From: a virus
Taxonomy: Duplodnaviria; Heunggongvirae; Uroviricota; Caudoviricetes
Virus record (IMG/VR): IMGVR_UViG_2917408641_000004
Length of the DNA stretch: 44,025 nucleotides
Direction: 5' to 3' (one strand)
Both the position numbers and the translations under genes were made by a program. Shown in pieces: positions 14,876 to 36,881 of this stretch. The stretch's first letter is position 1, and each line of letters starts with the position of its first letter. The notes beneath the pieces are model-generated. The model searched no databases. It had not been told where the DNA came from and worked only from the letters and a program-made list of their open reading frames with translations.

Positions 14876-14905
14876 ATATCAATACGGTTCTGACGAGCCG
14901 CTTAC

Positions 14906-14913
14906 GGCTTTTC
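14906..14913. repeat. 8-bp target-site duplication of IS66-family element (right copy)
   Basis: GGCTTTTC, identical to 10761-10768. Confidence 0.8.
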
Positions 14914-14998
14914 AGCTTTTGCAGAAGAATAAACTCATCTACAATCTTGCGCGGGGCTGAACTCCCGCTGAGTAACACCGTGCCACCGGAGAAAACCG

Positions 14999-15277
14999 AT
15001 GGCACGCAACGTAAAATATTACAATTCTGATAATTCGCCCGTTCTTGCCTGCACGCACGAGCGGTATTCTCACGCATTCAAGTCTGAATGGTTCCAGCAC
15101 CCTCCATGCACTGAAGAGCAGGCTGAATGGATAATTCAGTGTTACCGCAGGCGCGGATACGAGGTTAAGAAAGCCCTTAGTCTCGACTACCGTCACTGGA
15201 TAATCTCAGTCAGATTGCCTTACTCCGAACGCCCACCGCGTCCGTCCCGTACATTCCAGCAACGCATCTGGAGGTAA
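14999..15277 (+). CDS. Hypothetical phage protein
   Basis: 92 aa; SD GGAG upstream; directly precedes the DUF968-like gene. Confidence 0.45.
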   Translation: MARNVKYYNSDNSPVLACTHERYSHAFKSEWFQHPPCTEEQAEWIIQCYRRRGYEVKKALSLDYRHWIISVRLPYSERPPRPSRTFQQRIWR

Positions 15278-15278
15278 C

Positions 15279-16328
15279 GTGCGGGTATTACTTCGACCTG
15301 TTCTGGTACCGGAACTCGGGCTGGTGGTCGTTAAGCCGGGCCGTGAATCCATGCCGGTATTCCACAATACCCGGGTACTGGTGGAGCCGGAACCGAAAAG
15401 CATGCGTAATCTGCCGTCCGGGGTCGTTCCTGCCGTTCGCCAGCCGCTGGTGGAAGACAAAACATTGCTGCCGTTTTTCAGTAACGCACGGGTAATTCGT
15501 GCTGCTGGTGGTGCTGGTGCATTGTCTGACTGGCTGTTGCGCCATATTAAATCCTGCCAGTGGCCACACGGCGATTATCATCACAGCGAAACCGTTATTC
15601 ACCGTTATGGTACCGGCGCAATGGTGTTGTGCTGGCACTGCGACAACCAGCTGCGTGACCAGACATCCGAATCACTCGAGCAACTTGCTCATCAAAACCT
15701 GTCAGCATGGATGATTGACGTCATCGGTCACGCAATAAGCGGTACGCAGGAGCGTGAATTATCTCTGGCTGAATTATCCTGGTGGGCGGTCCGCAATCAG
15801 GTGGCGGACGCGCTACCGGAAGCGGTATTACGTCGCTCGCTGGGATTACCAGCGGAAAAAAACTGCTCGGTGTACCGCGAAAGCGACATCGTACCGGGAG
15901 AGCAGACCGCCACCAGCATATTGAAACAGCGCACAAAAAATCTTGCACCGTTGCCTCACGCCCACCAGCAACAAAACCCATCACAGGAAAAGACGGTGGT
16001 AAGCATCACCGTTGATCCAGAGTCTCCGGAATCTTTCATGAAGCTGCCTAAACGTCACCGTTGGGTTAAGGAGAAATACACACGCTGGGTTAAGACACAG
16101 CCGTGTGCTTGCTGCGGTATGCCAGCCGACGATCCGCATCATCTGATTGGTCACGGGCAGGGCGGAATGGGAACCAAAGCACATGATCTCTTTGTGTTGC
16201 CTTTGTGCAGAAAGCATCACGACGAGCTGCATGCGAATACCGTGGCATTTGAAGAGAAGTATGGCTCCCAGCTGGAGCTGATATTTCGTTTTATCGATCG
16301 TGCGCTGGCAATAGGCGTACTGGCGTAA
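15279..16328 (+). CDS. YdfU-like protein (DUF968) with HNH-like His/Cys motif
   Basis: 349 aa; C-terminal CACCGMPADDPHHLIGHG..H..LCRKHHDELH motif; located immediately upstream of Q as in Qin-type prophages. Confidence 0.55.
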   Translation: MRVLLRPVLVPELGLVVVKPGRESMPVFHNTRVLVEPEPKSMRNLPSGVVPAVRQPLVEDKTLLPFFSNARVIRAAGGAGALSDWLLRHIKSCQWPHGDYHHSETVIHRYGTGAMVLCWHCDNQLRDQTSESLEQLAHQNLSAWMIDVIGHAISGTQERELSLAELSWWAVRNQVADALPEAVLRRSLGLPAEKNCSVYRESDIVPGEQTATSILKQRTKNLAPLPHAHQQQNPSQEKTVVSITVDPESPESFMKLPKRHRWVKEKYTRWVKTQPCACCGMPADDPHHLIGHGQGGMGTKAHDLFVLPLCRKHHDELHANTVAFEEKYGSQLELIFRFIDRALAIGVLA

Positions 16329-16341
16329 GTGGAGAACGAGC

Positions 16342-17094
16342 ATGAACCTTGAAGCTTTACCAAAATATTACTCCCCAAAATCTCCAAAATTGAGTGATGA
16401 CGCACCGGCGACAGGCTCGGGTGGTTTAACAATAACAGATGTGATGGCTGCGCAGGGGATGGTGCAGTCGAAAGCTCCGCTTGGTTTTGCCTTATTCCTG
16501 GCAAAAGTTGGTGTTCAGGATCCTCAGTTTGCGATTGAAGGTCTGCTCAATTACGCGATGGCAATGGATAATCCGACATTGAACAAATTGAGTGAAGAAA
16601 TCCGGTTACAGATCATCCCTTACCTTGTGAATTTTGCCTTTGCTGATTATTCCAGGTCTGCGGCAAGTAAGGCTCGCTGTGAGTATTGTGCTGGTACTGG
16701 ATTTCATAATGTATTGCGCGAAGTGGTGAAACACTCCAGAAGTGGGGAATCTGTTATCAAGGAAGAGTGGGTGAAGGAACTATGTCAGCATTGCCATGGT
16801 AAGGGAGAAGTCAGCACAGCGTGCAGAGGGTGTAAGGGGAAAGGTATTGTCCTGGATGAAAAAAGAACCCAGCTTCATAGCACGCCTGTTTATAAGGTTT
16901 GTGGGCGTTGCAATGGAAACCGGTTTAGTCGTTTACCAACGACACTGGCGCGGTGTCATGTCCAGAAGCTGGTACCAGACCTGACGGATTATCAGTGGTA
17001 CAAAGGATATGCAGATGTCATTGATAAACTGGTTACAAAGTGCTGGCAGGAAGAAGCATATGCTGAGGTGCAATTAAGAAAAGTGACGAGATAA
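16342..17094 (+). CDS. Late-gene antiterminator Q
   Basis: 250 aa; multiple CxxC zinc motifs (CEYCAGTG, CQHCHGKG, CRGCKGKG, CGRCNG); located upstream of the lysis genes. Confidence 0.7.
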   Translation: MNLEALPKYYSPKSPKLSDDAPATGSGGLTITDVMAAQGMVQSKAPLGFALFLAKVGVQDPQFAIEGLLNYAMAMDNPTLNKLSEEIRLQIIPYLVNFAFADYSRSAASKARCEYCAGTGFHNVLREVVKHSRSGESVIKEEWVKELCQHCHGKGEVSTACRGCKGKGIVLDEKRTQLHSTPVYKVCGRCNGNRFSRLPTTLARCHVQKLVPDLTDYQWYKGYADVIDKLVTKCWQEEAYAEVQLRKVTR

Positions 17095-17247
17095 ATGATT
17101 TTCACCGAACGATGGCGACATAACGATTGTATTTTCTAAGGAAACGTGCAAAGAGTTTTCCAATGATGAGCCTTATATGCATACCGGTGGAAAATATCAA
17201 TAAGCCGCGCAGAGTGGTTTTTTTGTGGACATAAACTTTGTGCAGAA

Positions 17248-17285
17248 CGGTAACCATTATGGTTGCCGTGAATGCAGTTTTTTTA
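17248..17285 (+). terminator. Possible terminator downstream of Q (tR'-like)
   Basis: Hairpin CGGTAACCAT-T-ATGGTTGCCG followed by a T8 tract about 9 nt downstream. Confidence 0.3.
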
Positions 17286-18169
17286 CATTGCTGGCTTTTT
17301 TAGATTTGTGTTAGTTATTGATATTAACAAGAAGGGGAAAAGACATGCTAAAACGGCAGGATATGAAGGAAACGGTTATGCGTGAATGTTCCAGTGTGAT
17401 TAACCATATCATCTGGAGAAGCCATCCTGATGCAGGGAAGAGGTAACAGTAACGCGCATCAATCAGGCTGCAAATAAATGGCTTACGCCGGAAATCTGGC
17501 TATCGATGTATTACCGGTTTGTTACCCATGAAGAAAATTAAGGTGATAACGAAACTGATTTTATTGGTGTCTTGTCAGAGTGTTGCGATGAAACTTGTGT
17601 TGGCAGTGCAGGGAAAACAGTAGGATGAAAATTATAAATTGCTTTAAATGAGCTTGATTTTCCTCATGTTATGAGATATTTGTCTTATATTGCTGGTTAA
17701 TTATGAAAATTTTTGTAAATCTACAGCAATAAAATCCATATTAATTAAAGCACTAGATGCGTTTCTGATTTGTGCATGAAACATACATATCATAATGATT
17801 AATTGCATCTATAATTACAGATACAGCATTGTGCTGTTAAAAAACTGGAGTCCCCATGAATACATTATATGTAAGTGATTCAAATGAAAAATCTCATGAC
17901 AGGAATAAAAACAATGAGGATAGTAAGGGTAAGGATAATAAAAAAGACAACCGGAAAGAGTAAATAATCTTTCCTGCATAAAAATACTAGGGTGGAATAT
18001 GTCAGAACATCCAGATTTTGATGACCGTAAGCCTGATGATGAGCCCGTTGAGCGTCCTGATGAGGGGCAACCATTGAACCCTTTTTCACCGGATGATAAA
18101 AGAGATCCTATTATTTAGATATAGCAGAATATAGCCGTTTAAAGTAGGTTGTGTTTTGTTGCTATCCTT

Positions 18170-18197
18170 AAACCACCTCCACAGGAGGTGGTTTTTT
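18170..18197 (+). terminator. Strong rho-independent terminator
   Basis: AAACCACCTCC-ACAG-GGAGGTGGTTT stem-loop followed by TTTTTT. Confidence 0.7.
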
Positions 18198-18254
18198 ACT
18201 AATGGAACATTAATTGGCAGATGTGATTGTGTACGACTTATGGGAGGCTTAAGA

Positions 18255-18440
18255 TTATTTTCTGCCAATAATAAAACCAAGCGTTAACCCTATGCTTAGA
18301 GCAACCACCACGCTAGTCAGTGGATAATTTCTAAATTTATCTTTAACGTTTTCTTTGTCTCCCTGCAAAGCATCGTCAGCACATGATGCATATTTTTTGA
18401 CAGTATTAACTATTTCGTTTTCAGATTGATTTGAAGTCAT
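18255..18440 (-). CDS. Small membrane-anchored protein, ElaB/YqjD-like (DUF883-like)
   Basis: 61 aa from ATG 18440; hydrophilic N-terminus and C-terminal TM segment ..PLTSVVVALSIGLTLGFIIGRK, the architecture of DUF883 stress proteins. Confidence 0.45.
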   Translation of the reverse strand: MTSNQSENEIVNTVKKYASCADDALQGDKENVKDKFRNYPLTSVVVALSIGLTLGFIIGRK

Positions 18441-18893
18441 GTTTGAAGTCCTGATGTTAAGTGGCTTTTTAATTATAGCAGATATGCTTTCAATGATAGG
18501 GCGGAGAGTTGTTATTGAGGTGATACTATGACCACTCAATCAACATTACATAAAATGACGTTTACTCCTGTTTGGCACAGTAGCAGAATTTTGCTTCTGC
18601 TACTGAAGTCGCTTTAGCACTAGAATATGCAGATGGATAAAGCAGTTCAGCGTATGTACTGCGTCATGCATATCGGTCTTGCAGATATGACGAGAAGGGG
18701 AGACAAGGTGTGTGTAATGTAGAAGTCTTTAAAGTGCTGTCTGGGATAACTCTATGCTGAAGTGCAATTGATAAAAGTAACACGATAAAGGTTTTTCAAT
18801 GAAGATGGTAACCTGATGCTTGCATTTTTCAAAAAATATGGATAAAATTTTTTCAACGATGGGCTTTGTATACCCGACGTTAAGAAAAAGTAG

Positions 18894-19422: not shown

Positions 19423-19722
19423 AAAAATTCCTTAATACTGATAACTTGGCGCACTATACACACGTTCCTGAAGAAAGCTATAGTTTTTTGATGGGGTTGA
19501 AGATGGCTGGATGTCTAAAATAAACATTGCTTCATATGTTCAACTATGCGTTAATGATTGCGTCGGTTTGAAGAACAGACGATATACGAAGTAGTTTACT
19601 AAAGCAGTTCTCATTTCAGGTGTTATTCACTTATTCCTTCTTTGAGTCTCTCCAATTAAGTACGAAGTCGTTTCTGTTATACAAGCCATTTATGCCGAAA
19701 GGCTCAAGTTAAGGAATGTAGA

Positions 19723-19938
19723 ATGTCAAATAAAATGACTGGTTTAGTAAAATGGTTTAACGCTGATAAAGGTTTTGGCTTTATTTCTCCTGTTGATGGT
19801 AGTAAAGATGTGTTTGTGCATTTTTCTGCGATTCAGAATGATAATTTTCGAACCTTATTTGAAGGTCAAAAGGTTACCTTCTCTGTAGAGAGTGGTGCTA
19901 AAGGTCCTGCAGCAGCAAATGTCATAATTACTGATTAA
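19723..19938 (+). CDS. cspB: Cold-shock protein CspB
   Basis: 71-aa product [38 protein letters not shown]..; CspA-family RNP motifs. Confidence 0.8.
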
Positions 19939-20221
19939 AATTAATAGTTTGTCTGTATACGATAACGAAGAAGGCTGATGCCTGAGTGGAGATACAGACA
20001 GAGTGGTGAATATTGGATCTCTTTAATAAATAGTAAGGAGATCCAATACATGAAACAATGACCAGCATATTTGGCAATAACTTAATCAGGAAAAGTATGC
20101 TAACCATTGTGGTGAAGTGCAGGTTTGCTGCATGAATAGTTTTACAGCAGAAGCTAACTGCTAGCATAGCAAAACAAAGTGCGTAAGTGGATGACTCCCA
20201 CAAAAAGCACCACAATATTAA

Positions 20222-22811: not shown

Positions 22812-23174
22812 ATTAATATTAAATCGGATTATTTTTAGCGCTGAATGTGAAATTTAAATAAAAAGGACTCTTCCATGAGTCAAAATCCTTGAAATCTTAA
22901 GGGTAAGATAAAAGGTCATTAGACAGAATGACACGTTTTATTAATAAATAAAGCTATTGTTTCATTCGTGTGTTTTTCTTTACAAAAGTAATCCTTGCTA
23001 TGGTTGGTTAATCATGCGTTAATGGTGTTCTGGTTTGTTACAAAATTATCTGAAGCAGTCATTGTTATAATTTTATTATTTGTACCTCTTGAGATTTCCT
23101 TGTTGGTTTTTCTCTCTGATATTTTTTTTCGGACCATTCTGCCCAAGGGCTAACTTCTTCAAAAGGTAATAATG

Positions 23175-23387
23175 ATGTCTAACAAAATGACTGGTTTAGT
23201 GAAATGGTTTAACCCTGAAAAAGGTTTTGGTTTCATCACGCCGAAAGATGGTAGCAAAGATGTGTTTGTCCATTTCTCAGCTATTCAGAGCAACGATTTC
23301 AAAACGTTAACTGAGAATCAGGAAGTCGAATTTGGTATTGAGAACGGACCTAAAGGCCCCGCGGCTGTTCATGTTGTGGCACTTTGA
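23175..23387 (+). CDS. cspI: Cold-shock protein CspI
   Basis: 70-aa product [70 protein letters not shown]. Confidence 0.8.
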
Positions 23388-23594
23388 GGTAGAAAATATT
23401 ACAAACCATATTCACTTTAGATGCCCGTGTTGCCATGGTTCTCAGTATAGAACATCATCTTTTGATGTTTCTGACAGGAATCCTTTCGGGGCAAAATGTA
23501 TCTTTTGTAAATCAATGATGATTACATTTGATAATATTTCACAATACTTAAATGTTAGCCGTCTGTCGTTAGATTTAAGAAAGTGAAAATGAAG

Positions 23595-24736: not shown

Positions 24737-25097
24737 TCACCATAACTGCTAACCATTCTGACCATTTCACAAGTGACAGAGTCAATATCGTATTCTGTCA
24801 CTGTCAGGCTAATACAGTACTGCAATTCAACTACAGCAATGCCTCGTATTTAGGTGAATTTACAATATCGTCCAGTTCGGATGCCGGCTGCATTTCTGAA
24901 GATAAGGCATTTCGGTTCTCGTATTTTCCCCTCATGCTCGTCAGTCCTGCGCGTAGTAAGAAACAGGACACTCACACTAATTTGTGTGGGCATGCTGTGA
25001 TGTCCTTCTGAATTATCCCCATGCCATTATGTAAAGCTCTGTTACAGATGCTCGTCACGGTTGTCAGGCTGTCGGGTCCTCCCAGTGGGGGGCCCTG

Positions 25098-25120
25098 CCA
25101 CGGGGCGGGAGCGTCGCGGA
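25098..25120. other. cos site (cosN-like nicking region)
   Basis: ACG-GGGCGGGAGCGT-CGCGG closely resembles lambda cosN ACG-GGGCGGCGACCT-CGCGG; lies about 180 bp upstream of the terminase small-subunit gene, as in lambda. Confidence 0.6.
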
Positions 25121-25298
25121 AAAAGGCTAGTTTTTGCATTTCCATGGCGGCGGCAGCATGTTTGGTAATTTATTGATAATTAAAAGTTATTTCTCTTTTC
25201 ACCTGTACAATATTTTTTTCTCCCTGTCATTAGACCAGTTTACAATTAATTGAAATATATAAATAAACATGATTTTCACCTGCCAGATGGAGTTGCTT

Positions 25299-25826
25299 AT
25301 GTCAAATGTGAGCGGGATCGGTGATGCTTATTACTGGAGTGTTTTTAAAATCGCTGAGGCCTTTGGGCTTCACCGGGACACAGTAAAAAAACGGCTTCTC
25401 GCGGCCAACACTCCTGTGGCTGCGACTGTCAGGGGGAACCCCGTTTACGCCCTGCAGCATGTCGGGCCAGCCCTGTTTAGTGTGAAGCATGAGGCAGCAG
25501 ACTCTGTTCATGATCCATCCCGTATGGAGCCGAAAGAGAGAAAGGACTGGTACCAGTCTGAAAATGAAAGGATCAAGCTGGAAAAGGAGCAGCGAAAACT
25601 CATCCCCGTTGATGAAGTAGTCATCGTCTATTCGTCCATGAGAAAGGCTGTCGTCCAGGTTCTGGAGACAATTCCGGATGTTCTTGAACGCGATTGCGCC
25701 CTGACTCCTCAGGCCGTCGGCGTTGTACAGCAGGCAATTGATGACCTGCGATACACTCTTCAGGAAAAATCCTACGAGGCTTGTGCTGCTGAATTAATTC
25801 CTGATGAGGAAGGAGAGAGTCTCTAG
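25299..25826 (+). CDS. Terminase small subunit
   Basis: 175 aa from ATG 25299 (SD GGAG); N-terminal HTH-like DNA-binding region; directly upstream of terminase large subunit and downstream of cos. Confidence 0.6.
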   Translation: MSNVSGIGDAYYWSVFKIAEAFGLHRDTVKKRLLAANTPVAATVRGNPVYALQHVGPALFSVKHEAADSVHDPSRMEPKERKDWYQSENERIKLEKEQRKLIPVDEVVIVYSSMRKAVVQVLETIPDVLERDCALTPQAVGVVQQAIDDLRYTLQEKSYEACAAELIPDEEGESL

Positions 25827-25834
25827 GAGGAATA

Positions 25835-27934
25835 ATGGGTTTTTCATCAGCCCGAAATTTGGGAAGGGACATATCGGCAGGATTTTCCCCACCACGTCGC
25901 ATGCCGATTTCGGAGGCTGTAAAAAAATTCATGCGTGTTCCCAAGGGGGCTGGTAACTCGGTGCCATGGGATCCTGAACTGACACCCTACATCATTGAGC
26001 CCATGAACTGCCTGGCATCGCGTGAATACGATGCGGTGATTTTTGTTGGTCCTGCGCGAACAGGGAAGACCATTGGTCTGATCGATGGATGGATTGTCTA
26101 TACCATCGTTTGCGATCCTTCGGACATGCTCGTTGTGCAGATGACCGAAGATAAGGCCCGCGAGCATTCTAAAAAGCGCCTCGACAGAACGTTCAGAAGC
26201 AGTGCGGCGGTAAAGAAAAGAATGAGTCCACGTCGTAACGACAATAATGTCCATGATAAGACGTTCAGGGATGGCTCGTTCCTTAAAATTGGTTGGCCCT
26301 CGGTCAACATTATGTCGTCGTCGGATTACCGGTTTGTCGCCTTAACCGATTACGACCGTTTTCCGGAGAATATCGACAGCGAGGGTGATGGTTTCTCCCT
26401 GGCCTCAAAACGTACCACCACATTTATGTCCGCCGGGATGACTCTGGTGGAGAGCTCGCCGGGACGTGACATCTGCGACAGCAAATGGCGACGTAAGTCG
26501 CCTCATGAAGCGCCACCGACGACTGGTATTCTTTCCCTTTACAATCGTGGTGACCGCCGCCGCTGGTACTGGTCATGTCCGCACTGCGGTGAATATTTTC
26601 AGCCAGCCATGGATGCCATGACCGGCTACCGTAATGAACCGGATCCCTTTAAAGCCAGTGAGGCGGCGTATCTACTTTGCCCGCACTGCAGCGGCATTAT
26701 CACTGCGGAGAAAAAGCGTGAGCTCAATAGTGCAGGAGTCTGGTTGCGTGAAGGTCAGGTCATTGATCGTAACGGCAACGTTTCCGGTGAACCGCGCCGC
26801 TCCCGTATCGCCAGTTTCTGGATGGAAGGGCCAGCTGCTGCGTATCAGACCTGGGCGCAACTGGTTTACAAATTACTGACTGCAGAACAGGAGTATGAAG
26901 CGACAGGAAGCGAAGAAACACTCAGGGCGGTTATCAACACCGACTGGGGATTGCCTTATCTTCCTCGTGCCAGCATGGAGCAACGAAAAAGTGAACTGCT
27001 TGAGCAGCGGGCAGAGCCAGTTCCTTCCCGCAGTGTGCCGGATGGCATTAATTTCCTTGTGGCGACAGTGGATGTGCAGGCGGGACGTCATCGCCGTTTT
27101 GTGGTTCAGGTAACGGGCTATGGCAGTCGTGGCGAACGCTGGATTATTGATCGTTACAACATCACGCAGTCATTGCGCAGTGACTGCGACGGGGAGAGCC
27201 AGCGAATTGATCCGGCCAGCTATCCAGAAGACTGGGATGTCCTGCTGACGGATGTTTTTCATAAAAGCTGGCCGCTGGCCTCCGATCCTTCTCAACAAAT
27301 GCGACTGATGGCAATGGCGGTGGACTCCGGCGGTGAAGACGGGGTCACTGATAATGCCTATAAATTCTGGCGTCGTTGCCGTCGTGATGGCCTTGGTAAA
27401 CGTATTTACCTGTTTAAGGGTGACAGCATCCGGCGCGCAAAACTGATCAGCCGTACATTCCCTGATAACACCGGACGAACGGGCCGCCGGGCGCAGGCCG
27501 CAGGTGATGTGCCGCTCTGGCTTCTTCAGACGGATGCCCTGAAAGACCGGGTGAATAACGCGTTATGGCGTGACTCGCCAGGTCCAGGCTATGTGCATTT
27601 CCCTGACTGGCTGGGGAGCTGGTTTTACGACGAACTGACGTATGAAGAGCGGAGCAGTGACGGGAAATGGAGTAAGCCGGGTCGCGGTGCCAACGAAGCT
27701 TTTGACCTGATGGTGTATGCCGAGGCTCTGGTCATTCTGCATGGATACGAAAAGATCCGCTGGCCGGATGCACCGGAGTGGGCGAGCCGGGAAACCTGGC
27801 TGGAGTGTGTCCAGGACAGTACCGAACCGTCATCCTCACCGGAACCGGTATCCACGCCTATTAAAAAACAAAAACGGAAGAAAACAGTAACTGACGATGT
27901 TAACCCCTGGCTGACTTCCGGAGGATGGTTATGA
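25835..27934 (+). CDS. Terminase large subunit (lambda gpA-like)
   Basis: 699 aa; SD AGGAGG; Walker A motif VGPARTGKT; gpA-family architecture. Confidence 0.9.
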   Translation: MGFSSARNLGRDISAGFSPPRRMPISEAVKKFMRVPKGAGNSVPWDPELTPYIIEPMNCLASREYDAVIFVGPARTGKTIGLIDGWIVYTIVCDPSDMLVVQMTEDKAREHSKKRLDRTFRSSAAVKKRMSPRRNDNNVHDKTFRDGSFLKIGWPSVNIMSSSDYRFVALTDYDRFPENIDSEGDGFSLASKRTTTFMSAGMTLVESSPGRDICDSKWRRKSPHEAPPTTGILSLYNRGDRRRWYWSCPHCGEYFQPAMDAMTGYRNEPDPFKASEAAYLLCPHCSGIITAEKKRELNSAGVWLREGQVIDRNGNVSGEPRRSRIASFWMEGPAAAYQTWAQLVYKLLTAEQEYEATGSEETLRAVINTDWGLPYLPRASMEQRKSELLEQRAEPVPSRSVPDGINFLVATVDVQAGRHRRFVVQVTGYGSRGERWIIDRYNITQSLRSDCDGESQRIDPASYPEDWDVLLTDVFHKSWPLASDPSQQMRLMAMAVDSGGEDGVTDNAYKFWRRCRRDGLGKRIYLFKGDSIRRAKLISRTFPDNTGRTGRRAQAAGDVPLWLLQTDALKDRVNNALWRDSPGPGYVHFPDWLGSWFYDELTYEERSSDGKWSKPGRGANEAFDLMVYAEALVILHGYEKIRWPDAPEWASRETWLECVQDSTEPSSSPEPVSTPIKKQKRKKTVTDDVNPWLTSGGWL

Positions 27935-28143
27935 ACCAGAATGATATCGAAGCCATGATTCAGCGTTATACGGAAGCTGAAATGGCGGTGCTGGACGGAA
28001 AATCCGTCACTTTTAATGGTCAGCAGATGACCATGGAAAACTTATCTGAGATCCGGCAGGGGCGGCAGGAGTGGGAGCGCCGCCTTGCGGCTCTGATTAC
28101 ACGACGACGGGGGCATCCCGGGTACCGGCTGGCGAGGTTCTGA
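27931..28143 (+). CDS. W: Head-tail joining protein W-like
   Basis: 70 aa; ATGA overlap with terminase stop; lambda gpW-like size and C-terminal RRRG motif. Confidence 0.7.
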   Translation: MNQNDIEAMIQRYTEAEMAVLDGKSVTFNGQQMTMENLSEIRQGRQEWERRLAALITRRRGHPGYRLARF

Positions 28144-28667
28144 TGGCAATTCTTGATGATGTGATTGGCGTTTTTTCACCAGGATGGAAAGCGGCAAGGC
28201 TGCGTTCCCGTGCGGTGATCCAGGCTTATGAGGCCGTAAAAACGACGCGGACACACAAAGCCCGACGGGAGAACCGAACTGCCGACCAGTTAAGCCAGTA
28301 CGGGGCCGTGTCGTTACGTGAGCAGGCCCGTTACCTTGATAACAACCACGATCTGGTCATTGGTGTATTTGACAAGCTGGAAGAACGGGTGGTGGGGAAA
28401 AGACCGGTGATGCCGTGGATTGACCCTGTTAAGGAGGCTGAGGCCTGGAAAATTCAGATTCGTGGTGGAGCGGCGACAGAATCAGACTGGGTACGTGCAG
28501 GTGGTCGTAATCCAGATGATGTCAAACGTCGGCGCAAGGCCGAAATTGATGAAAACCGCAAGCTGGATCTGGTATTTGATACCGATCCGGCCAGTGATAA
28601 AGGAGGCAGCAGTGCCGCAACGAAACGACAGGAGCCGCAGCACACCGACGACCAGTCCGAAGAATAA
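28143..28667 (+). pseudogene. Portal protein remnant with large internal in-frame deletion
   Basis: Only 174 aa where a portal of about 500 aa is expected; N-terminal part (..LREQARYLDNNHDLVIGVFDKLEERVVG) and C-terminal part (..PWIDPVKEAEAWKIQIRGGAATESDW..) align with the N- and C-terminal regions of lambda gpB; TGATG coupling to W. Confidence 0.55.
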
Positions 28668-28680
28668 TTCCTGGTTCAGG

Positions 28681-30639
28681 ATGCAGGCAGGTCACCAGAG
28701 TGACGCGGATATTTATATTTATGACGAGATTGGTTTCTGGGGTGTTACGGCGAAGCAGTTTATCAGTGATCTGAATGCACTGGGCGATATCACCCACATT
28801 AATCTCCATATTAATTCACCGGGTGGCGATGTCTTTGAAGGCATCGCCATTTTTAATGCACTGAAAACACATGGTGCGTCCATTACCGTTTATGTCGACG
28901 GTGTGGCGGCGTCAATGGCGTCGGTCATTGCGATGGTGGGAAACCCGGTCATTATGCCGGAAAACTCCTTCATGATGATTCATAAACCATTTGGATTTAC
29001 GGGCGGTGATGCGGAGGACATGCGCACCTATGCCGACCTGCTCGATAAAGTTGAGGCGGTTCTGTTACCCGCTTATGCACAGAAAACCGGGAAAACCACC
29101 GATGAAATTGCTGCCATGCTGGCGGATGAGACCTGGATGTCCGGTGCCGAATGTCTGGCACAGGGATTTGCTGATCAGGTGACACCAGCCGTTAAGGCAA
29201 TGGCATGTATTCAGTCAAAACGTACAGAGGAATTTAAAAAGATGCCGGAATCCATTCGAAACATGATTACTCCGCCACGCAACAGTGCTCCACGCGTACA
29301 GGATGATGAACCTGCAGCCTCCCGGACGCCAGTGCAGGCAGCAGCACCCGTGGTGGATGAAAACAGTATCCGTGCGCAGGTACTGGCAGAGCAAAAAGCG
29401 CGTGTAAACGGTATTAATGATCTGTTTGCCATGTTTGGCGGGCGTTATCAGACGCTGCAGGCCCAGTGTCTTGCCGATCCTGAATGTTCGCTGGAGCAGG
29501 CCCGTGAAAAGCTGTTGAACGAGATGGGGCGCGAGTCCACGCCATCCAATAAAAATACCCCGGCTCATATTTATGCCGGTAACGGTAATTTTGTGGGGGA
29601 CGGGATTCGCCAGGCGCTGATGGCGCGTGCCGGATTTGAAAAAACCGAACGTGATAATGTCTACAACGGGATGACCCTGCGTGAATATGCCCGTATGTCA
29701 CTAACTGAACGGGGTATTGGGGTTTCCGGTTATAACCCGATGCAGATGGTCGGTGCGGCGTTCACACACAGTACGTCTGACTTCGGTAATATTCTGCTGG
29801 ATGTTGCGAACAAAGCCATTCTGCAGGGCTGGGAAGATGCCCCTGAAACCTATGAACAGTGGACGCGGAAAGGTCAGTTGTCTGATTTTAAAATTGCCCA
29901 TCGTGTGGGTATGGGGGGCTTCAGTGCTCTGCGTCAGGTGCGTGAAGGGGCGGAATATAAATACGTCACCACCGGAGATAAACAGGCCACTATTGCACTG
30001 GCGACCTATGGCGAGCTGTTCAGTATCACCCGTCAGGCCATTATCAATGATGATCTGAATATGCTGACCGATGTCCCGATGAAACTGGGCCGTGCGGCGA
30101 AATCCACTATTGCCGATCTGGTTTATGCCATTCTGACGTCTAACCCGAAAATCTCCACAGATAATGTAAGTCTGTTCGATAAAGCGAAACATGCAAACGT
30201 ACTGGAGAGCGCTGCAATGGACGTGGCATCGCTGGATAAAGCCCGCCAGTTGATGCGCGTTCAGAAAGAGGGGGAGCGTCATCTGAATATTCGTCCTGCG
30301 TTCGTACTGGTACCGACGGCGATGGAGTCTGTTGCTAACCAGGTCATTCGCTCCTCAAGTGTCAAGGGGGCTGACATTAACGCCGGTATTATTAACCCGG
30401 TGAAAGATTTTGCGACCGTTATTGCAGAGCCTCGTCTTGATGATAACAGCCAGACCACCTTCTACCTGGCTGCGTCAAAAGGCTCCGATACGATTGAAGT
30501 GGCTTATCTCAACGGTGTGGATACGCTATATATTGATCAGATGGAGGGCTTCAGTGTGGATGGCGTGACAACGAAAGTGCGTATTGACGCCGGTGTCGCG
30601 CCAGTTGATCACCGCGGTCTGGTGAAATGTACGGCGTAA
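28681..30639 (+). CDS. Fused prohead protease (ClpP-like) - scaffold - major capsid protein
   Basis: 652 aa; N-terminal ClpP/S14 protease fold (YIYDEIGFWGV..INSPGGDVFEGIAIFNAL..SMASVIAMVG..MIHKP), central coiled-coil-like region, C-terminal HK97-fold-type capsid region; single uninterrupted frame. Confidence 0.75.
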   Translation: MQAGHQSDADIYIYDEIGFWGVTAKQFISDLNALGDITHINLHINSPGGDVFEGIAIFNALKTHGASITVYVDGVAASMASVIAMVGNPVIMPENSFMMIHKPFGFTGGDAEDMRTYADLLDKVEAVLLPAYAQKTGKTTDEIAAMLADETWMSGAECLAQGFADQVTPAVKAMACIQSKRTEEFKKMPESIRNMITPPRNSAPRVQDDEPAASRTPVQAAAPVVDENSIRAQVLAEQKARVNGINDLFAMFGGRYQTLQAQCLADPECSLEQAREKLLNEMGRESTPSNKNTPAHIYAGNGNFVGDGIRQALMARAGFEKTERDNVYNGMTLREYARMSLTERGIGVSGYNPMQMVGAAFTHSTSDFGNILLDVANKAILQGWEDAPETYEQWTRKGQLSDFKIAHRVGMGGFSALRQVREGAEYKYVTTGDKQATIALATYGELFSITRQAIINDDLNMLTDVPMKLGRAAKSTIADLVYAILTSNPKISTDNVSLFDKAKHANVLESAAMDVASLDKARQLMRVQKEGERHLNIRPAFVLVPTAMESVANQVIRSSSVKGADINAGIINPVKDFATVIAEPRLDDNSQTTFYLAASKGSDTIEVAYLNGVDTLYIDQMEGFSVDGVTTKVRIDAGVAPVDHRGLVKCTA

Positions 30640-30663
30640 ACGTCGCAGACAACAACTCTGATG

Positions 30664-30682
30664 GCCCGTAAGGGCTTTTTTT
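30664..30682 (+). terminator. Weak terminator-like hairpin after capsid gene
   Basis: GCCC-GTAA-GGGC followed by TTTTTTT. Confidence 0.35.
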
Positions 30683-30725
30683 GTACCTGAAATCAGCCCC
30701 TGAACGGGGCTGTGCGGAGACAGTT

Positions 30726-31049
30726 ATGGCAAAGAATTTTGTAGAAGAAGGAAAAACGGTGGCGATTGTTGCCAGTGCAGCCATCAGCAGCGGAGATCTG
30801 GTGCAGGTGGGCGATGTTTTTGCGGTGGCGCTGACCGATATTCCACAGGGTGAAACAGGCGACGGCATGACCGAAGGTGTGTTTATGCTGCCTAAGCTGA
30901 AAACGGATGACATGAAAACGGGTAAGAAGGTTTATCTGAAGTCCGGAAAAGTTCAGCTGACTAACAGCGGCTCTGATCCGCTGGTCGGGGTTGTCTGGGC
31001 AGATGCCGGAACCAGTGCAGAAGAAGTGCCGGTAAAACTCAATGTCTGA
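30726..31049 (+). CDS. Head-associated protein (possible decoration/DUF2190-like)
   Basis: 107 aa from ATG 30726 (SD GGAGA); Gly/Val-rich small protein between capsid and head-tail genes. Confidence 0.4.
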   Translation: MAKNFVEEGKTVAIVASAAISSGDLVQVGDVFAVALTDIPQGETGDGMTEGVFMLPKLKTDDMKTGKKVYLKSGKVQLTNSGSDPLVGVVWADAGTSAEEVPVKLNV

Positions 31050-31317
31050 TCCCTTTTCCCGGCTGGCAGCGCGTATGGATGCTATCACGGTTAGAAAGAT
31101 GGGAAAGACAGCCTCGATTAATGATGTCGATATGACTGTGATCCCGGGAGAAACACTGGCAGAGCTGAATGCTCTGTCCGGACCTGCGGTCTCTCTGGTG
31201 GTGTTTTCTTCGGGATACCGCCCACGGCGCGGGGATCGCGTTGTTTATGACGGACAACAATGGACGGTCACACGGAATGAACGCTTTAACGGTAAGCCAA
31301 TGATCTTTATTGAGTAA
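31042..31317 (+). CDS. Head-tail joining protein, lambda FII-like
   Basis: 91 aa; position before Z; RRGD and W.V.R motifs as in gpFII. Confidence 0.55.
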   Translation: MSDPFSRLAARMDAITVRKMGKTASINDVDMTVIPGETLAELNALSGPAVSLVVFSSGYRPRRGDRVVYDGQQWTVTRNERFNGKPMIFIE

Positions 31318-31328
31318 AGAGGTGTGGG

Positions 31329-31907
31329 ATGAAGGGGCTTGAGAATGCCATCCGCAATCTGAACAGCCTTGATACCCGTATGGTGCCACAGGCCAGCGCA
31401 TGGGCGATAAACCGTGTGGCACAGAAAGCGGTCTCGGTTACCACCCGGCAGGTTGCCGGGAATACCGTTGCGGGAGATAACCAGGTGAAAGGGATCCCCC
31501 TGAAACTGGTACGTCAGCGTGTCCGGGTGTTTAAAGCCAGTCCGTCAGGAAAAATGACGGCCAGGATCCGCGTTAACCGGGGCAATCTGCCTGCCATTAA
31601 GCTGGGGACAGCCCGGGTCAGACTGGCCCGGCGTGGTGGAAAACTGCAGTACCGTGGCAGTGTGCTGAAGGTGGGTAAATATCTTTTCCGGGATGCGTTT
31701 ATTCAGCAACTGGCGAATGGTCGCTGGCATGTGATGCGGCGTATTGATGGCAAAAATCGTTACCCCATTGATGTGGTGAAAATCCCGCTGTCCGGACAGC
31801 TGACACAGGCATTTGAAGATGCCCGCGACCGCATCATTGCTGCGGAAATGCCGAAACAGCTGGGGTATGCACTGAAACAACAACTGAGGTTATGGCTGGC
31901 CCGATGA
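31329..31907 (+). CDS. Z: Tail completion protein Z
   Basis: 192 aa starting MKGLENAIRNLNSL; SD AGAGG; lambda gpZ-like in size and sequence. Confidence 0.8.
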   Translation: MKGLENAIRNLNSLDTRMVPQASAWAINRVAQKAVSVTTRQVAGNTVAGDNQVKGIPLKLVRQRVRVFKASPSGKMTARIRVNRGNLPAIKLGTARVRLARRGGKLQYRGSVLKVGKYLFRDAFIQQLANGRWHVMRRIDGKNRYPIDVVKIPLSGQLTQAFEDARDRIIAAEMPKQLGYALKQQLRLWLAR

Positions 31908-32305
31908 ACCGACATACACAAATCCGCCAGGTCGTACTGGCACGCCTTCGAGAACAGTGTGGAGACAGCGCCACGTTTTTTGACGGGCTTCCGGCATTTG
32001 TTGATGCGCAGGAACTGCCTGCCGTGGCGGTGTGGCTGAGTGATGCTCAGTACACCGGAAAAATGACGGATGAAGATGACTGGCAGGCTGTTCTGCATAT
32101 TGCTGTCTTCATCCGGGCACAGGCACCGGATTCAGAGCTGGATATGTGGATGGAGAGCACCATTTTCCCGGCCCTGAATGATGTACCAGCACTTTCCGGA
32201 CTCATCGACACCCTGATCCCACTCGGTTTTAACTATCAACGTGATAATGAGATGGCCACCTGGGCGATGGCGGAAATCACGTACCAGATCACGTACACGA
32301 ATTAA
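31904..32305 (+). CDS. U: Tail terminator protein U
   Basis: 133 aa from ATG 31904 (ATGA overlap with Z); ..ATFFDG..PAVAV..DSELD.WMES..PALS..ITY matches gpU. Confidence 0.8.
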   Translation: MNRHTQIRQVVLARLREQCGDSATFFDGLPAFVDAQELPAVAVWLSDAQYTGKMTDEDDWQAVLHIAVFIRAQAPDSELDMWMESTIFPALNDVPALSGLIDTLIPLGFNYQRDNEMATWAMAEITYQITYTN

Positions 32306-32315
32306 GGAGGTGGTA

Positions 32316-33059
32316 ATGACCACACCAAATCCACTGGCAAAAACGAAAGGTGCGGGAACGACGTTCTGGATGTATACCGGCAAGGGCGATGCGTTTGCGA
32401 ACCCTTTATCGGACACTGACTGGCTGCGTCTTGCGATGGTGAAGGATCTGCAACCTGGCGAAATGACCGCTGATGCAGAAGATGACACTTATCTCGATGA
32501 TGAAGATGCAGACTGGAAAACGACAACCCAGGGGCAGAAATCCGTTGGTGATACTTCGGCGACGCTGGCCTGGCGTCCGGGTGACAGCGGGCAGAAAAAA
32601 CTGGTTCAGTTGTTCGACTCCGGTGAAGTCTGCGCGTTTCGTATCAAATATCCCAACAGCACTGTTGATGTTTTCCGTGGCTGGCTGAGCTCACTGGGTA
32701 AAACCATTGCCTCAAAAGACGTGATGACCCGCACTGTGAAAATCAGCGGTGTGGGGCGTCCGTATCTGGCAGAGGAAGGCACTGAAACCGTGAGCGTTAC
32801 CGGGCTGACAGTATCACCGGCATCTGCCAGTGTAAAAGTGGGAGCAACCACCACGCTGACCTTTACAGTAAAACCTGACGGAGCCAGTGACAAAGCGATC
32901 AGTGTGCATTCGTCAGATCCACAGACTGCCACGGTTACCCTGAACGGACTTGTGGCCACGGTAAAAGGCGTGAAGCAGGGCAGTGTCAGCATTGTGGGCA
33001 TGACCGCTGACGGGAATTTTGTGGCTGTGGCTGCGGTGACTGTCAGCGCAGCAGGTTAA
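32316..33059 (+). CDS. V: Major tail protein V with C-terminal Ig-like domain
   Basis: 247 aa from ATG 32316 (SD AAGGAGG); ..KGAGTTFWMYTGKGDAFANPLSD..YLDDEDADW..VDVFRGWLSS.. matches gpV. Confidence 0.9.
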   Translation: MTTPNPLAKTKGAGTTFWMYTGKGDAFANPLSDTDWLRLAMVKDLQPGEMTADAEDDTYLDDEDADWKTTTQGQKSVGDTSATLAWRPGDSGQKKLVQLFDSGEVCAFRIKYPNSTVDVFRGWLSSLGKTIASKDVMTRTVKISGVGRPYLAEEGTETVSVTGLTVSPASASVKVGATTTLTFTVKPDGASDKAISVHSSDPQTATVTLNGLVATVKGVKQGSVSIVGMTADGNFVAVAAVTVSAAG

Positions 33060-33079
33060 CAGGACGATACTCATCATTT

Positions 33080-33103
33080 GCCCCGGTTATTCGGGGCTTT
33101 TTT
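33080..33103 (+). terminator. Terminator-like hairpin after major tail gene
   Basis: GCCCCG-GTTATT-CGGGGC followed by TTTTTT. Confidence 0.5.
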
Positions 33104-33116
33104 GCAGGTGGAGAAC

Positions 33117-33506
33117 ATGATGTTTCTGAAACAGGACACGTTTAATTATGAAAAACAGTCCGTGGTGCTCAGTGAGCTGTCCGGGCTGCAGAGAATTGAA
33201 TATCTGACGTTTGTTCAGCAGCGAACGGCAAAGTTTGATGCCGGGGAGGGAGAACTGCCGGAGGCTGAACGACAGATTGCTTTTCTGCGGATGGGGATGG
33301 ATATCAATGCCTGGCTGGTTTCCCGCTCACTGTGGAATGCGGAACAGTCTCAGGATGTTGAGACGCTTTACGCATCCGTTATTACAACATGGTCGTATGA
33401 TGCCCTGGGTGCGGGGGCGGAGATGGTTCTGTCGCTGAGCGGTATGGGGGCCATTGATAATGCCGGGGATTTGGAGCATGAGGTGCTGACGCCGGAAAAG
33501 TCCTGA
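33117..33506 (+). CDS. G: Tail assembly chaperone G
   Basis: About 130 aa starting MMFLKQDTFN; ..LSELSGLQRIE..SLW.. as in gpG. Confidence 0.8.
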   Translation: MMFLKQDTFNYEKQSVVLSELSGLQRIEYLTFVQQRTAKFDAGEGELPEAERQIAFLRMGMDINAWLVSRSLWNAEQSQDVETLYASVITTWSYDALGAGAEMVLSLSGMGAIDNAGDLEHEVLTPEKS

Positions 33507-33844
33507 CGCGGGAAATGCAGTTTGTCATGCGGCTTGCCCGGGAGTTCCGGCGGGCAGACTGGCGGCGGATGCTGTCGGAAATGTCGGCCACTGAGCTTGG
33601 TGAGTGGGGCGATTATTTCCGGATGCAGAGCTTCAGTGATGTGTGGATGGATGCGCAGTTTGCCTCGCTGAAGGCATTGATCGTGAGAATGGTGTCCGGC
33701 AGCAGTGATGCTGCGGTGGCTGATTTCAGCCTTTTACCGGAAGAGAACGGGATACCGGAGCGAACGGACGAAGAACTGATGCATCTTGGGGAAGGTATTT
33801 CCGGAGGTGTGCGTTATGGACCAGATAGCCAACCTGGTCATTGA
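33482..33844 (+). CDS. T: Tail assembly chaperone T segment, probably expressed as G-T fusion by -1 frameshift
   Basis: ORF in the -1 frame relative to G, open from 33482, overlapping the last 7 codons of G; arrangement identical to lambda G/T. Confidence 0.65.
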   Translation, partial: GADAGKVLTREMQFVMRLAREFRRADWRRMLSEMSATELGEWGDYFRMQSFSDVWMDAQFASLKALIVRMVSGSSDAAVADFSLLPEENGIPERTDEELMHLGEGISGGVRYGPDSQPGH

Positions 33845-36800
33845 TTTGGGGATTGATGCGGCAGAGTTTAAAAATGAAATTCCCCGTATCAAAAACCTTC
33901 TGAATGGTGCAGCCAGCGATGCAGAACGGTCTTCTGCCCGTATGCAGCGTTTTATGGAGCGTCAGACTCAGGCCGCCCGGCAGACAACGCAGGCGGCGTC
34001 TTCGGCTGCAACAGCCGCATCCGTCCATGCGCAGACGGTGGAGAAGAACGCACAGGCTCATGAACGCATGGCCCGCGAGGTGGAGAAAACCCGCCAGCGT
34101 ATGGAGGCACTGAGCCAGAAAATGCGCGAGGAACAGGCGCAGGCCATGGCTCTGGCGGAGGCTCAGGATAAAGCAGCTGCTGCGTTTTATCGTCAGATTG
34201 ACAGTGTGAAACAGGCCAGTGCGGGGCTGCAGGAATTACAGCGTATTCAGCAGCAGATCCGACAGGCCAGAAACAGTGGCGGGATTGGTCAGCAGGATTA
34301 TCTGGCGCTGATTTCTGAGGTTACGGCGAAAACCCGTGTTCTTACGCAGGCTGAGGAAGAGGCTACCCGACAGAAAGTGGCGTTTATCCGTCAGCTTAAA
34401 GAGCAGGCAACCCGCCAGAATCTTTCTTCTTCTGAGTTGCTTCGTGCTAAGGCTGCCCAGCTGGGGGTAAGCAGTGCTGCAGAAGTGTATATCCGCAAAA
34501 TGGAGCAGGCAGGAAAAGCCACGCATTCGCTGGGTCTGAAAAGTGCAGCGGCCCGCCAGGAGATAGGCGTTCTGATAGGTGAACTGGCCCGCGGCAATTT
34601 AGGGGCGCTGAGGGGATCCGGGATAACGCTGGCTAACCGTGCCGGATGGATAGACACTCTGATGTCACCGAAAGGCATGATGCTTGGCGGGGTTATTGGC
34701 GGTATTGCCGCGTCCGTCTATGGTCTGGGTAAAGCCTGGTATGACGGTCAGAAGGAGGGGGAAGAATTTAACCGCCAGTTGTCGCTGACGGGGCATTATG
34801 CCGGAGTCACTGCCGGGCAGCTGTGGACGCTCAGTCGTGCTATTTCCGGGAATGGTATCACGCAACATGCTGCAGCCGGTGCGCTGGCTCAGGTGGTGGG
34901 GAGTGGTGCATTTCGTGGAAACGATATCGGTATGGTGGCGAGAGCTGCCGCACAGATGGAGCGATCGGTTGGCCAGTCGGTCAGCGATACCATAAATCAG
35001 TTTAAGCGGCTGAAGGATGATCCTGTAAATGCCGCGAAGGCTCTGGACAATGAGCTGCATTTTCTTACTGCCACTCAGCTTGAGCAGATACGTGTCCTTG
35101 GGGATCAGGGACGGTCCAGTGATGCTGCACGGATAGCCATGTCTGCACTGGCAGAGGAAACCGGTCGGCGTACTGCGGATATTGATAATAACCTCAATGC
35201 GCTTGGCAGTACGCTGAAGTATCTGTCTGATTTGTGGAGTCGTTTCTGGGATGCGGCCATGAATATTGGTCGTGAAGACTCGCTGGATGAACAGATTGCC
35301 GCTTTACAGGAGAAAGTGTCGCGGGCGAAAAGACTCCCCTGGACGGCATCATCTTCTCAGGTTGAATACGATCAGCAGCGTCTTAACGATCTTCAGGAGA
35401 AAAAACGCCAGAAGGATTTGCAGGATGCAAAAGAGCAGGCAGAGCGGAATTATCAGGAGCAACAGAAACGACGTAATGCTGAAAATGCTGCACTGAACCG
35501 GATGAATGAAACGGAAGCAGCACGACATCAGCGTGAAATTGCGCGTATTAATTCCATGCAGTACGCCGATCAGGCTGTCAGGGATGCAGCGATACAACGT
35601 GAAAATGAACGTTACGAGAAAGCCCTGGCATCCGGTAAGAAAAAAACACGCGAAACCCGTAATGATGAGGCCACCCGGTTATTGCTGCAGTACAGTCAGC
35701 AACAGGCACAGGTGGAAGGACAGATTGCTGCTGCAAGACAGTCAGCAGGCATTGCCACTGAAAAGATGACAGAAGCGCATAAACAGCTTCTGGCTCTGCA
35801 GCAGCGCATCAGCGATCTGGACGGGAAAAAACTGACGGCAGATGAAAAGAGTGTGCTGGCCCGTAAAGATGAACTGATTCAGGCACTGACGCTGCTGGAT
35901 GTAAAACAGCAGGAGCTTCAGAAACAGACGGCACTCAACGATCTGAAGAAAAAAACAATTCAGCTGACCAGTCAACTGGCTGAAGAAGAGCGCGCTCAGC
36001 GTCAGCAACATGACCTGGATATCGCCACGGTGGGTATGGGTGATCAGCAGCGGCAGCGATATCAGGTACAACTGAGTCTTCGCCAGAAATACCAGCAACA
36101 GCTGGAGCAGTTGAGGCGGGATAGTGAGCAGAAAGGGACATATAACACGGATGACTACAGAAAGGCCGAGCAGGCGCTGACGGAGAGCCTGAACCGACAA
36201 CTGAATGAGAATCGCCGTTACTGGCAACAGCTTGAAGTTGTGCAGGGTAACTGGAAAAACGGAGTCCTGCGTGCATTTCAGGATTTTACCGTGGATGCAG
36301 ACAATACGGCAGGAACAGCAGAACAGGTGTTCTCGTCAGCCTTCAGCAACATGGGAAATGGCCTGGCAACTTTTGTCACTACCGGCAAACTCAACTTCAA
36401 ATCCTTCACCTCTTCGGTGCTGTCAGATATGGCGAAAATCCTGGCGCAGGCAACCATGATGAAATCGATAAAAGGGATTGGCAGTGTACTGGGATTTGAT
36501 CTCAGCAGCCTTTCCCTGAATGCCAATGGGGGGATTTATCAGTCTGCTGATTTGAGTCGTTACAGTGGCACGGTGGTTAACCGTCCGACGTTTTTTGCTT
36601 TTGCAAAAGGCGCGGGTGTGATGGGGGAAGCTGGACCTGAAGCCATTCTGCCACTGCGTCGTGGTGCTGACGGTAAGCTGGGGGTTGTGGCGGATATTGG
36701 TGGTTCAGGTATGGCGATGTTTGCCCCGCAGTACAACATCGAGATCAATAACGATGGCACGAACGGGCAGATAGGTCCGGCTGCCCTGAAGGTGGTTTAT

Positions 36801-36881
36801 GACCTTGGGAAAAAAGCGGCAGCGGACTTTATGCAACAGCAGGCCCGTGATGGTGGTCGGTTAAGTGGAGCATATCGGTAA
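33816..36881 (+). CDS. H: Tail tape measure protein H
   Basis: 1021 aa from ATG 33816 (SD GGAGGTG); long coiled-coil-rich protein with C-terminal Gly-rich region; position between T and M. Confidence 0.9.
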   Translation: MDQIANLVIDLGIDAAEFKNEIPRIKNLLNGAASDAERSSARMQRFMERQTQAARQTTQAASSAATAASVHAQTVEKNAQAHERMAREVEKTRQRMEALSQKMREEQAQAMALAEAQDKAAAAFYRQIDSVKQASAGLQELQRIQQQIRQARNSGGIGQQDYLALISEVTAKTRVLTQAEEEATRQKVAFIRQLKEQATRQNLSSSELLRAKAAQLGVSSAAEVYIRKMEQAGKATHSLGLKSAAARQEIGVLIGELARGNLGALRGSGITLANRAGWIDTLMSPKGMMLGGVIGGIAASVYGLGKAWYDGQKEGEEFNRQLSLTGHYAGVTAGQLWTLSRAISGNGITQHAAAGALAQVVGSGAFRGNDIGMVARAAAQMERSVGQSVSDTINQFKRLKDDPVNAAKALDNELHFLTATQLEQIRVLGDQGRSSDAARIAMSALAEETGRRTADIDNNLNALGSTLKYLSDLWSRFWDAAMNIGREDSLDEQIAALQEKVSRAKRLPWTASSSQVEYDQQRLNDLQEKKRQKDLQDAKEQAERNYQEQQKRRNAENAALNRMNETEAARHQREIARINSMQYADQAVRDAAIQRENERYEKALASGKKKTRETRNDEATRLLLQYSQQQAQVEGQIAAARQSAGIATEKMTEAHKQLLALQQRISDLDGKKLTADEKSVLARKDELIQALTLLDVKQQELQKQTALNDLKKKTIQLTSQLAEEERAQRQQHDLDIATVGMGDQQRQRYQVQLSLRQKYQQQLEQLRRDSEQKGTYNTDDYRKAEQALTESLNRQLNENRRYWQQLEVVQGNWKNGVLRAFQDFTVDADNTAGTAEQVFSSAFSNMGNGLATFVTTGKLNFKSFTSSVLSDMAKILAQATMMKSIKGIGSVLGFDLSSLSLNANGGIYQSADLSRYSGTVVNRPTFFAFAKGAGVMGEAGPEAILPLRRGADGKLGVVADIGGSGMAMFAPQYNIEINNDGTNGQIGPAALKVVYDLGKKAAADFMQQQARDGGRLSGAYR

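Follow-up and report, generated by a model that had tools for sequence, protein, structure and literature searches.

Among lambda-like phages the 7-bp cosQ is a known conserved element, and cosQ, the cohesive-end sequence's left half and the flanking CG dinucleotides are all conserved while bp 7-12 are naturally variable (PMC4669245). Relative to lambda, the cosN of Gifsy-1 is changed at bp 8, 9 and 11 and that of N15 at bp 9 and 12 (PMC4669245). Downstream of cosN, the lambda spacer I2 (bp 18-50) is rich in poly-dA and poly-dT (PMC4856287), and R3 occupies bp 50-65 in lambda and bp 48-60 in N15 (PMC9026076). Gifsy-1, listed by Feiss et al. among the lambda-like cos phages, has a cosB ordered R3-I1-R2-R1 (PMC4669245, PMC9026076). 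A cosB of this class, as Feiss and co-workers define it, holds TerS-binding R sequences, which in N15 come down to a lone R3, together with an IHF site, all at a critical spacing from cosN. The cos of LLS and mEp213, GGGCGGCGCGCT, was proposed from the TerL family and from similarity to lambda (PMC12315714), and the 5' cohesive ends of Cr-LKS3 were determined experimentally; at 9 nt in length, these ends have their first 4 bp and their flanks in common with lambda (PMC9303873). Tritos, prophage 3 of Escherichia coli LF82, forms virions and plaques (PMC9928086).

The locus described here lies in a stretch of 44,025 nucleotides, hereafter the window, which is an integrated prophage with, in order, int, early genes, Q, lysis genes, cos, terS, terL, head genes, tail genes and a J-like gene. 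The segment from 25074 to about 25298 is very probably a lambda-type cos, belonging to a lambdoid E. coli prophage of the Tritos/cdtI type related to Qin. Its layout would be that of the lambda cos: cosQ, cosN, an A/T-rich spacer and a cosB with an IHF site, then terS and terL.

cosQ, cosN and the predicted cohesive ends

The 17-mer GGGCGGGAGCGTCGCGG occurs once in the window, at 25103-25119 on the plus strand; the interval first reported, 25098-25120, is this sequence with CCACG on its left and one A on its right. Compared with the lambda end sequence taken from NC_001416, GGGCGGCGACCTCGCGG, it has 4 mismatches in 17 positions, which fall at cohesive-end positions 7, 8, 9 and 11, in agreement with the original prediction of a lambda-like motif with few differences. 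Alignment to the lambda cos places ...GGTTACG/GGGCGGCGACCT/CGCGG of lambda opposite ...TGCCACG/GGGCGGGAGCGT/CGCGG of the window, with cosQ, the CG flanks and bp 1-6 in common. The two 12-mers are the same at 8 of 12 positions, including all of bp 1-6 (GGGCGG), and all four mismatches thus sit in bp 7-12, the half known to be variable (PMC4669245).

The cosN core, CG/GGGCGGGAGCGT/CG, spans 25101-25116 (+), and its nicks are predicted by homology to lambda (PMC9026076). The predicted positions are 25102/25103 for the top strand and 25114/25115 for the bottom strand, so that the left end would carry the 12-nt 5' overhang 5'-GGGCGGGAGCGT and the right end 5'-ACGCTCCCGCCC. Each of these predicted nicks has a CG dinucleotide beside it, at 25101-25102 and 25115-25116 (...CCACG/GGG...CGT/CGCGG). 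Of the 16 cosN positions, 8 obey two-fold rotational symmetry (lambda has 10), as do 12 of 22 when the window's site is taken more widely. The 8 of 16 is no better than in composition-matched shuffles, 26% of which reach 8.

By itself, the resemblance of the 17-mer to lambda is at chance level. First-order Markov simulations of the window give an expectation of 0.91 matches to the lambda 17-mer per window when up to 4 mismatches are allowed, with at least one match in 59% of simulations, and the window contains no match with 3 mismatches or fewer. A rate of about 0.9 per window would suit a fortuitous G+C-rich match without any packaging role, in a phage that packages by headful (pac) or from a site elsewhere. 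Yet the composite pattern GGGTCCT-N18-23-CG-GGGCGG-N6-CGCGG, present once in the window (25074-25119), appeared in 0 of 2000 simulations, is conserved, with an unchanging distance to terS, in diverged phages, accompanies a gpA-family TerL and coincides with the first base of two deposited phage genomes, those of cdtI and Tritos. These four observations contradict a chance or headful reading, which we consider extremely improbable. The site is regarded as real because of its surroundings, namely cosQ, the CG dinucleotides, the A/T tract, the IHF site and terS/terL, and not because of the 17-mer alone.

The heptamer GGGTCCT at 25074-25080 (+), one of only two occurrences in the window, is identical to lambda bp 48473-48479, which we take to be the 7-bp cosQ, lambda's signal for terminating packaging. 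From the heptamer to the predicted top-strand nick the spacer is 22 nt, compared with 23 nt in lambda. Close copies were collected as 80 IMG/VR loci with an almost identical TerS, representing 57 distinct upstream sequences; an alignment-based viral scan recovered no other loci than the near-identical ones of the single-protein scan, and a TerS scan of genome contigs gave only 2 loci. Among 36 distinct cosQ-anchored segments of these close copies GGGTCCT is invariant while 8 unrelated classes of left flank adjoin it, and it is precisely at cosQ that conservation rises, from about 0.6-0.7 to 1.0. Invariant beside unrelated flanks, cosQ thus forms the left limit of a conserved packaging module, as is expected for a mosaic lambdoid genome.

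A comparable footprint was found in more distant relatives, using three further scans for which diverged TerS proteins of the DUF1441 type (55-63% identity with the window TerS) served as seeds. A cosN-like site is present in 74 of 117 distinct diverged upstream regions, with the terS ATG at bp 195-199 except for one outlier at bp 236; the remaining 43 either come from truncated loci or belong to more divergent forms of high G+C content. The cosQ of these relatives is GGGTCCT or AGGTACT, followed by a spacer of 22-23 nt. CCACG precedes the nick position in 72 of the 74 and CGCGG follows in 65, and the cohesive-end sequence has a hypervariable right half, lambda's exact GGGCGGCGACCT being found in 11 diverged regions. 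A separate case is Trabulsiella guamensis (L014 / L113; TerS 57% identical), where a degenerate cosN-like GGGGGACGGGGA without GGGTCCT lies upstream of terS and an R3-like plus IHF-like block is present in two tandem copies of about 80 bp.

Spacer, IHF-type site and predicted cosB

Between cosN and cosB lies an A-tract/T-tract spacer, AAAAAGGCTAGTTTTT (25120-25135, +), which occupies the position of lambda I2. When 32 non-redundant cos regions that precede DUF1441 terS genes were aligned with MAFFT, this spacer proved strongly conserved as AAAACGGCTAGTTTT. It is followed at 25138-25160 (+) by a footprint in two parts, ATTTCCATGG, which is conserved, and a GC-rich triplet element specific to the lineage, CGGCGGCAGCATG, at 25148-25160 (bp 46-58). 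The location of the triplet element corresponds to that of R3 in lambda and N15, making it a candidate primary TerS-binding site. Among relatives, TTTTCATG is conserved and the next 13-16 bp vary by lineage, for instance as CTGTCAGCAGCAGGTG, GGGACACCACCAYGTG and CGCATCATCAGCAGGTG.

As a side observation, the elements at the R3 position (bp 46-60) are triplet-periodic and lineage-specific, with CGGCGGCAGCA in the window and CTGTCAGCAGCAG, GGGACACCACCA or CGCATCATCAGCA in others, and in the DUF1441-terS cos regions they are flanked by the conserved TTTTCATG and a conserved IHF-like site. Judging from these sequences, they may embody a packaging specificity that co-varies with TerS.

An I1-like candidate IHF site, TATCAATAAATTA, is found at 25166-25178 on the minus strand (bp 64-76) as a perfect match to the consensus WATCAANNNNTTR; the window holds 5 such matches where 2.0 are expected, and the match alone is weak. 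The IHF-type site aligns with lambda TAACTTAATGTTT at bp 74-86, about 10 bp nearer to cosN than its lambda counterpart, and its TTGAT core is conserved among relatives, where the alignment of 32 regions retains it as TAAC....TTGAT.

Three further elements, built around CACCTG/CAGGTG...TGTCA, emerged from the same alignment. Element A, TTTTCACCTGTAC (25196-25208, +), a candidate R site, reads T(C/G)AGGTGACAA or TTCACCTGTCC in relatives; it forms a 10-bp direct repeat with 25273-25282, not significant as a repeat in this sequence alone. Element B, CCTGTCATTAGACCAG (25223-25238, +), also a candidate R site, aligns with CTGTCA(C/T)CTGACCAG of relatives. Element C, TTTTCACCTGCCAGATGG (25273-25290, +), is a candidate R1-like site which aligns with TTCACCTGACAG.GTGAGGTG of relatives and adjoins the terS ribosome-binding site. 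When 12-16-mers from bp 38-72 were compared with bp 78-196 on both strands, a lambda-type R3/R2/R1 repeat set did not rise above shuffled controls within the single window sequence, and a general repeat search returned only weak AT-rich pairs. A promoter/terminator scan and Rfam gave nothing in the cos region. The predicted assignment of cosB consequently draws on position and conservation.

Terminase subunits and related phages

The original prediction placed the motif at the expected distance from the small terminase gene, and this holds: with the first cohesive-end base as bp 1, the terS ATG (25299) falls at bp 197 and that of lambda Nu1 at bp 191 (PMC9026076). The mechanically called terS ORF begins at an ATG at 25269, a codon which is CTG in most near-identical relatives, whereas the start at 25299 is backed by the family alignment and has GGAG ahead of it (25289-25292). 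The GenBank records differ on this start, which is set at bp 185 in cdtI and bp 197 in Tritos.

The terS gene (25299-25826, +) encodes a small terminase subunit of 175 aa with a DUF1441 domain (Pfam PF07278, E=1.9e-44), the only domain that Pfam reports, Phage_Nu1 not being detected. The PHROG profiles indicate that this TerS is a remote homologue of Nu1 because the two proteins hit each other's family reciprocally: the window TerS matches phrog_141 ('terminase small subunit', E=1.9e-65) and phrog_57, the lambda Nu1 family (E=1.3e-9), and lambda Nu1 in return matches phrog_57 (1e-76) and phrog_141 (E=5.6e-8), both families being annotated as small terminase subunit. A direct hhalign comparison of TerS with Nu1 was not significant, and no solved structure was matched by the TerS sequence. 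In an AF2 model (pLDDT 81.6), long helices come after a beta-alpha-alpha-beta-beta-alpha segment at the N-terminus, and the modelled N-terminal topology is consistent with a winged helix-turn-helix. A Nu1-family TerS is not required by the definition of Feiss et al., since Gifsy-2, among other published lambda-like cos phages, has a TerS of the DUF1441 type.

The terL gene (25835-27934, +) encodes a large terminase subunit of 699 aa which belongs to the gpA family, that of the 5'-extended cos type, by its Pfam domains, GpA_ATPase (E=4e-80) and GpA_nuclease (E=4.5e-86), and which shows 24% identity with lambda gpA across 627 aa (BLASTP, E=5e-22). A headful-type terminase had been named at the outset as a finding that would speak against a cos; because TerL carries these two domains, it is not of that type. 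Together with the conserved cosQ, CG dinucleotides and GGGCGG, the gpA-family TerL upholds the lambda-type cos packaging that was foreseen.

The window shares with lambda the cosQ heptamer GGGTCCT, the flanking CGs, GGGCGG at bp 1-6, a predicted 12-bp stagger, an A/T-rich spacer followed by an IHF-type site, a terS start at about 190-197 bp and a gpA-family terL. It departs from lambda at bp 7, 8, 9 and 11 and in the length of the cosQ spacer (22 rather than 23 nt), it lacks the lambda R-sequences (CGTTTCC...), its TerS is of the DUF1441 and not the Phage_Nu1 type, and its TerL is only 24% identical. Three points go further than the original prediction: the motif match alone is non-significant, a DUF1441 TerS goes with a cosB unlike that of lambda, and the resident prophage is probably defective.

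By analogy with lambda (PMC4669245, PMC4856287, PMC9026076), packaging at such a site would begin when dimers of the DUF1441-type TerS bind cosB (bp ~36-190) with the aid of a bend that IHF induces. The resulting complex would position the gpA-type TerL endonuclease on cosN, where TerL would nick the top strand at 25102/25103 and the bottom strand at 25114/25115. Strand separation would then yield the 12-nt 5' overhangs, with 5'-GGGCGGGAGCGT on the left end and the complementary one on the right end. Packaging would proceed to the right, taking in terS and terL and then the head and tail genes, and would stop at the next cos of the concatemer, with the terminal cut directed by cosQ and cosN.

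The closest described phages are cdtI (AB285204 / NC_009514) and Tritos (OV696610), which show 98.7-99% identity to a 1-kb query spanning the site. Each record has the equivalent of window base 25103 as its base 1 and that of 25102 as its last base, so that they begin with GGGCGGGAGCGTCGCGG and end with ...CTGCCACG (...CCACG). Both have the same 12-mer, GGGCGGGAGCGT, and a TerS protein 100% identical to that of the window. Tritos has the gene order of the window throughout, in blocks of 88.9-99.1% identity, and window 25103-42721 is 96.7-99.1% identical to Tritos 1-18614, the portal deletion described below apart; parts of the early region differ between the two. In cdtI, the sequence left of cosQ is unlike that of the window. 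The literature searched contained no statement on experimental end mapping of cdtI or Tritos, the LF82/Tritos paper (PMC9928086) does not describe any, and the exact 12-mer GGGCGGGAGCGT was not found quoted in the phage literature searched. The depositors of the two records may have chosen these starts on the model of lambda.

Salmonella loci with a TerS 55% identical to that of the window carry GGGCGGCAGCGG, which differs from the window 12-mer at bp 7 and 12, in the same cosQ, CG and I2 layout. Their packaging specificity is likely to be different because the elements at the R3 position differ, CGGCGGCAGCATG in the window and GGGACACCACCATGTG in the Salmonella loci. Phages of the Gifsy-1/Gifsy-2 type have a fused ClpP-protease/capsid gene, as does the head module of the window (PMC12315714). 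In mEp213 / LLS and mEp460, the cosQ, the spacer, CCACG/GGGCGG, CGCGG and the I2 block are homologous to those of the window, whereas TerS is about 41% identical and cosB differs beyond bp ~40. The cohesive-end sequence of mEp460, GGGCGGGAGCGG, is one base off that of the window, while mEp213 and Kp4865-4 share GGGCGGCGCGCT. VT1-Sakai and related Stx phages share the cosQ-cosN core and have right halves of their own.

Some of these comparisons could be taken to mean that the site is a cos cut otherwise than in lambda, with another overhang length or shifted nicks. The TerS of Cr-LKS3, 38% identical to that of the window, is of the same family and goes with a 5' overhang of 9 and not 12 nt (PMC9303873); VT1-Sakai shows an apparent 1-nt length difference; and the G at position 7 is rare, occurring in 1 of 17 distinct 12-mers among diverged relatives. 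Against this, CCACG and CGCGG stand exactly 12 bp apart, both here and in almost every enterobacterial relative, and the depositors of cdtI and Tritos put the genome ends at the lambda-equivalent positions. We consequently hold a departure from the lambda cut to be very unlikely, and the lambda-type nicks remain the preferred prediction.

State of the resident prophage and occurrence in E. coli

Although cos, terS and terL are intact in the window, the rest of the prophage is not. The junction 28401/28402 corresponds to Tritos 3299/4284, i.e., an in-frame deletion of 984 bp (Tritos 3300-4283) which removes 328 of the 502 portal codons and leaves a remnant ORF of 174 aa (28143-28667) with only the N-terminus of Phage_portal_2. 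This junction was found in 0 of 5,426 complete E. coli genomes, and the deletion could be private to this copy or an assembly artefact. Three IS elements are also present. An IS4-family transposase (11147-12475, -) in the early-right region and the adjoining IS66-family tnpA/tnpB/tnpC (12602-14875, +) have no counterpart in Tritos, and a Mutator-family transposase (Pfam Transposase_mut; 42817-44025, -) directly follows the J-like tail gene, in the place taken in Tritos by the stf side tail-fibre genes; its ORF runs to the window's final base. Activity in this host is doubtful because of the portal deletion and the three IS elements; to judge by its gene content, the window copy is probably defective and could not package from its own cos without help.

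Other genes and RNAs of the prophage were noted in passing. The early region encodes a QueH-like epoxyqueuosine reductase domain (PF02677, E=3e-65; 8772-9551, +), possibly a moron or a DNA-modification-related gene. Rfam matches typical of Qin/Tritos-type prophages correspond to the DicF sRNA (4775-4826, -), to the sok antitoxin RNA of a hok/sok module (9995-10169, +) and to two cspA-type thermoregulator leaders (19562-20001, + and 23017-23433, +) upstream of cold-shock genes.

The marking of the site as the likely ends of the linear genome, put forward in the original prediction, is supported. The cdtI and Tritos records do start at the base equivalent to 25103, and the site marks the place at which ends would be cut, but the present copy probably makes no virions unaided. 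We lean slightly towards the view that the site is a true cos by descent which has become a relic and is never used in this copy. With the portal deleted there would be no proheads able to accept DNA, and with the IS insertions replication or excision may be abnormal. The absence of the portal junction from the 5,426 complete genomes also fits a relic, as do the many E. coli matches to the cos-terS region that prove to be cryptic Qin prophages with a truncated terL. On the other side stand the 99% identity of cos-terS to that of plaque-forming Tritos, with a TerS protein 100% identical, and the intact terL; the deletion could be an artefact of assembly, and a related phage resident in the same cell could supply portal and heads.

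Such a supply would also underlie a further reading, which we find very unlikely, namely that cos, terS and terL have been kept intact for use in trans and that the prophage is a satellite-like, helper-dependent element rather than simple debris. A co-resident lambdoid phage would give the heads and the element's own cosB specificity would direct packaging, the GC-rich CGGCGGCAGC element at the R3 position being read by the DUF1441 TerS.

The exact TerS sequence of the window is present on at least 1000 contigs, and the cos-terS kilobase is matched in 2,126 of 5,426 complete E. coli genomes. Relatives of Tritos, cdtI and Qin thus occur in about 40% of complete E. coli genomes. The feature is an already known one, an ordinary lambda-type cos, and brings nothing conceptually new: the ends are already in deposited genomes and the class has been characterised for lambda, 21, N15 and Gifsy-1. 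For this widespread group of prophages, the site fixes the packaging strategy (cos, with predicted 12-nt 5' overhangs), the ends of the virion genome and its orientation, and is useful for annotating prophage boundaries, re-orienting assemblies and predicting helper/satellite pairs with a common packaging specificity.
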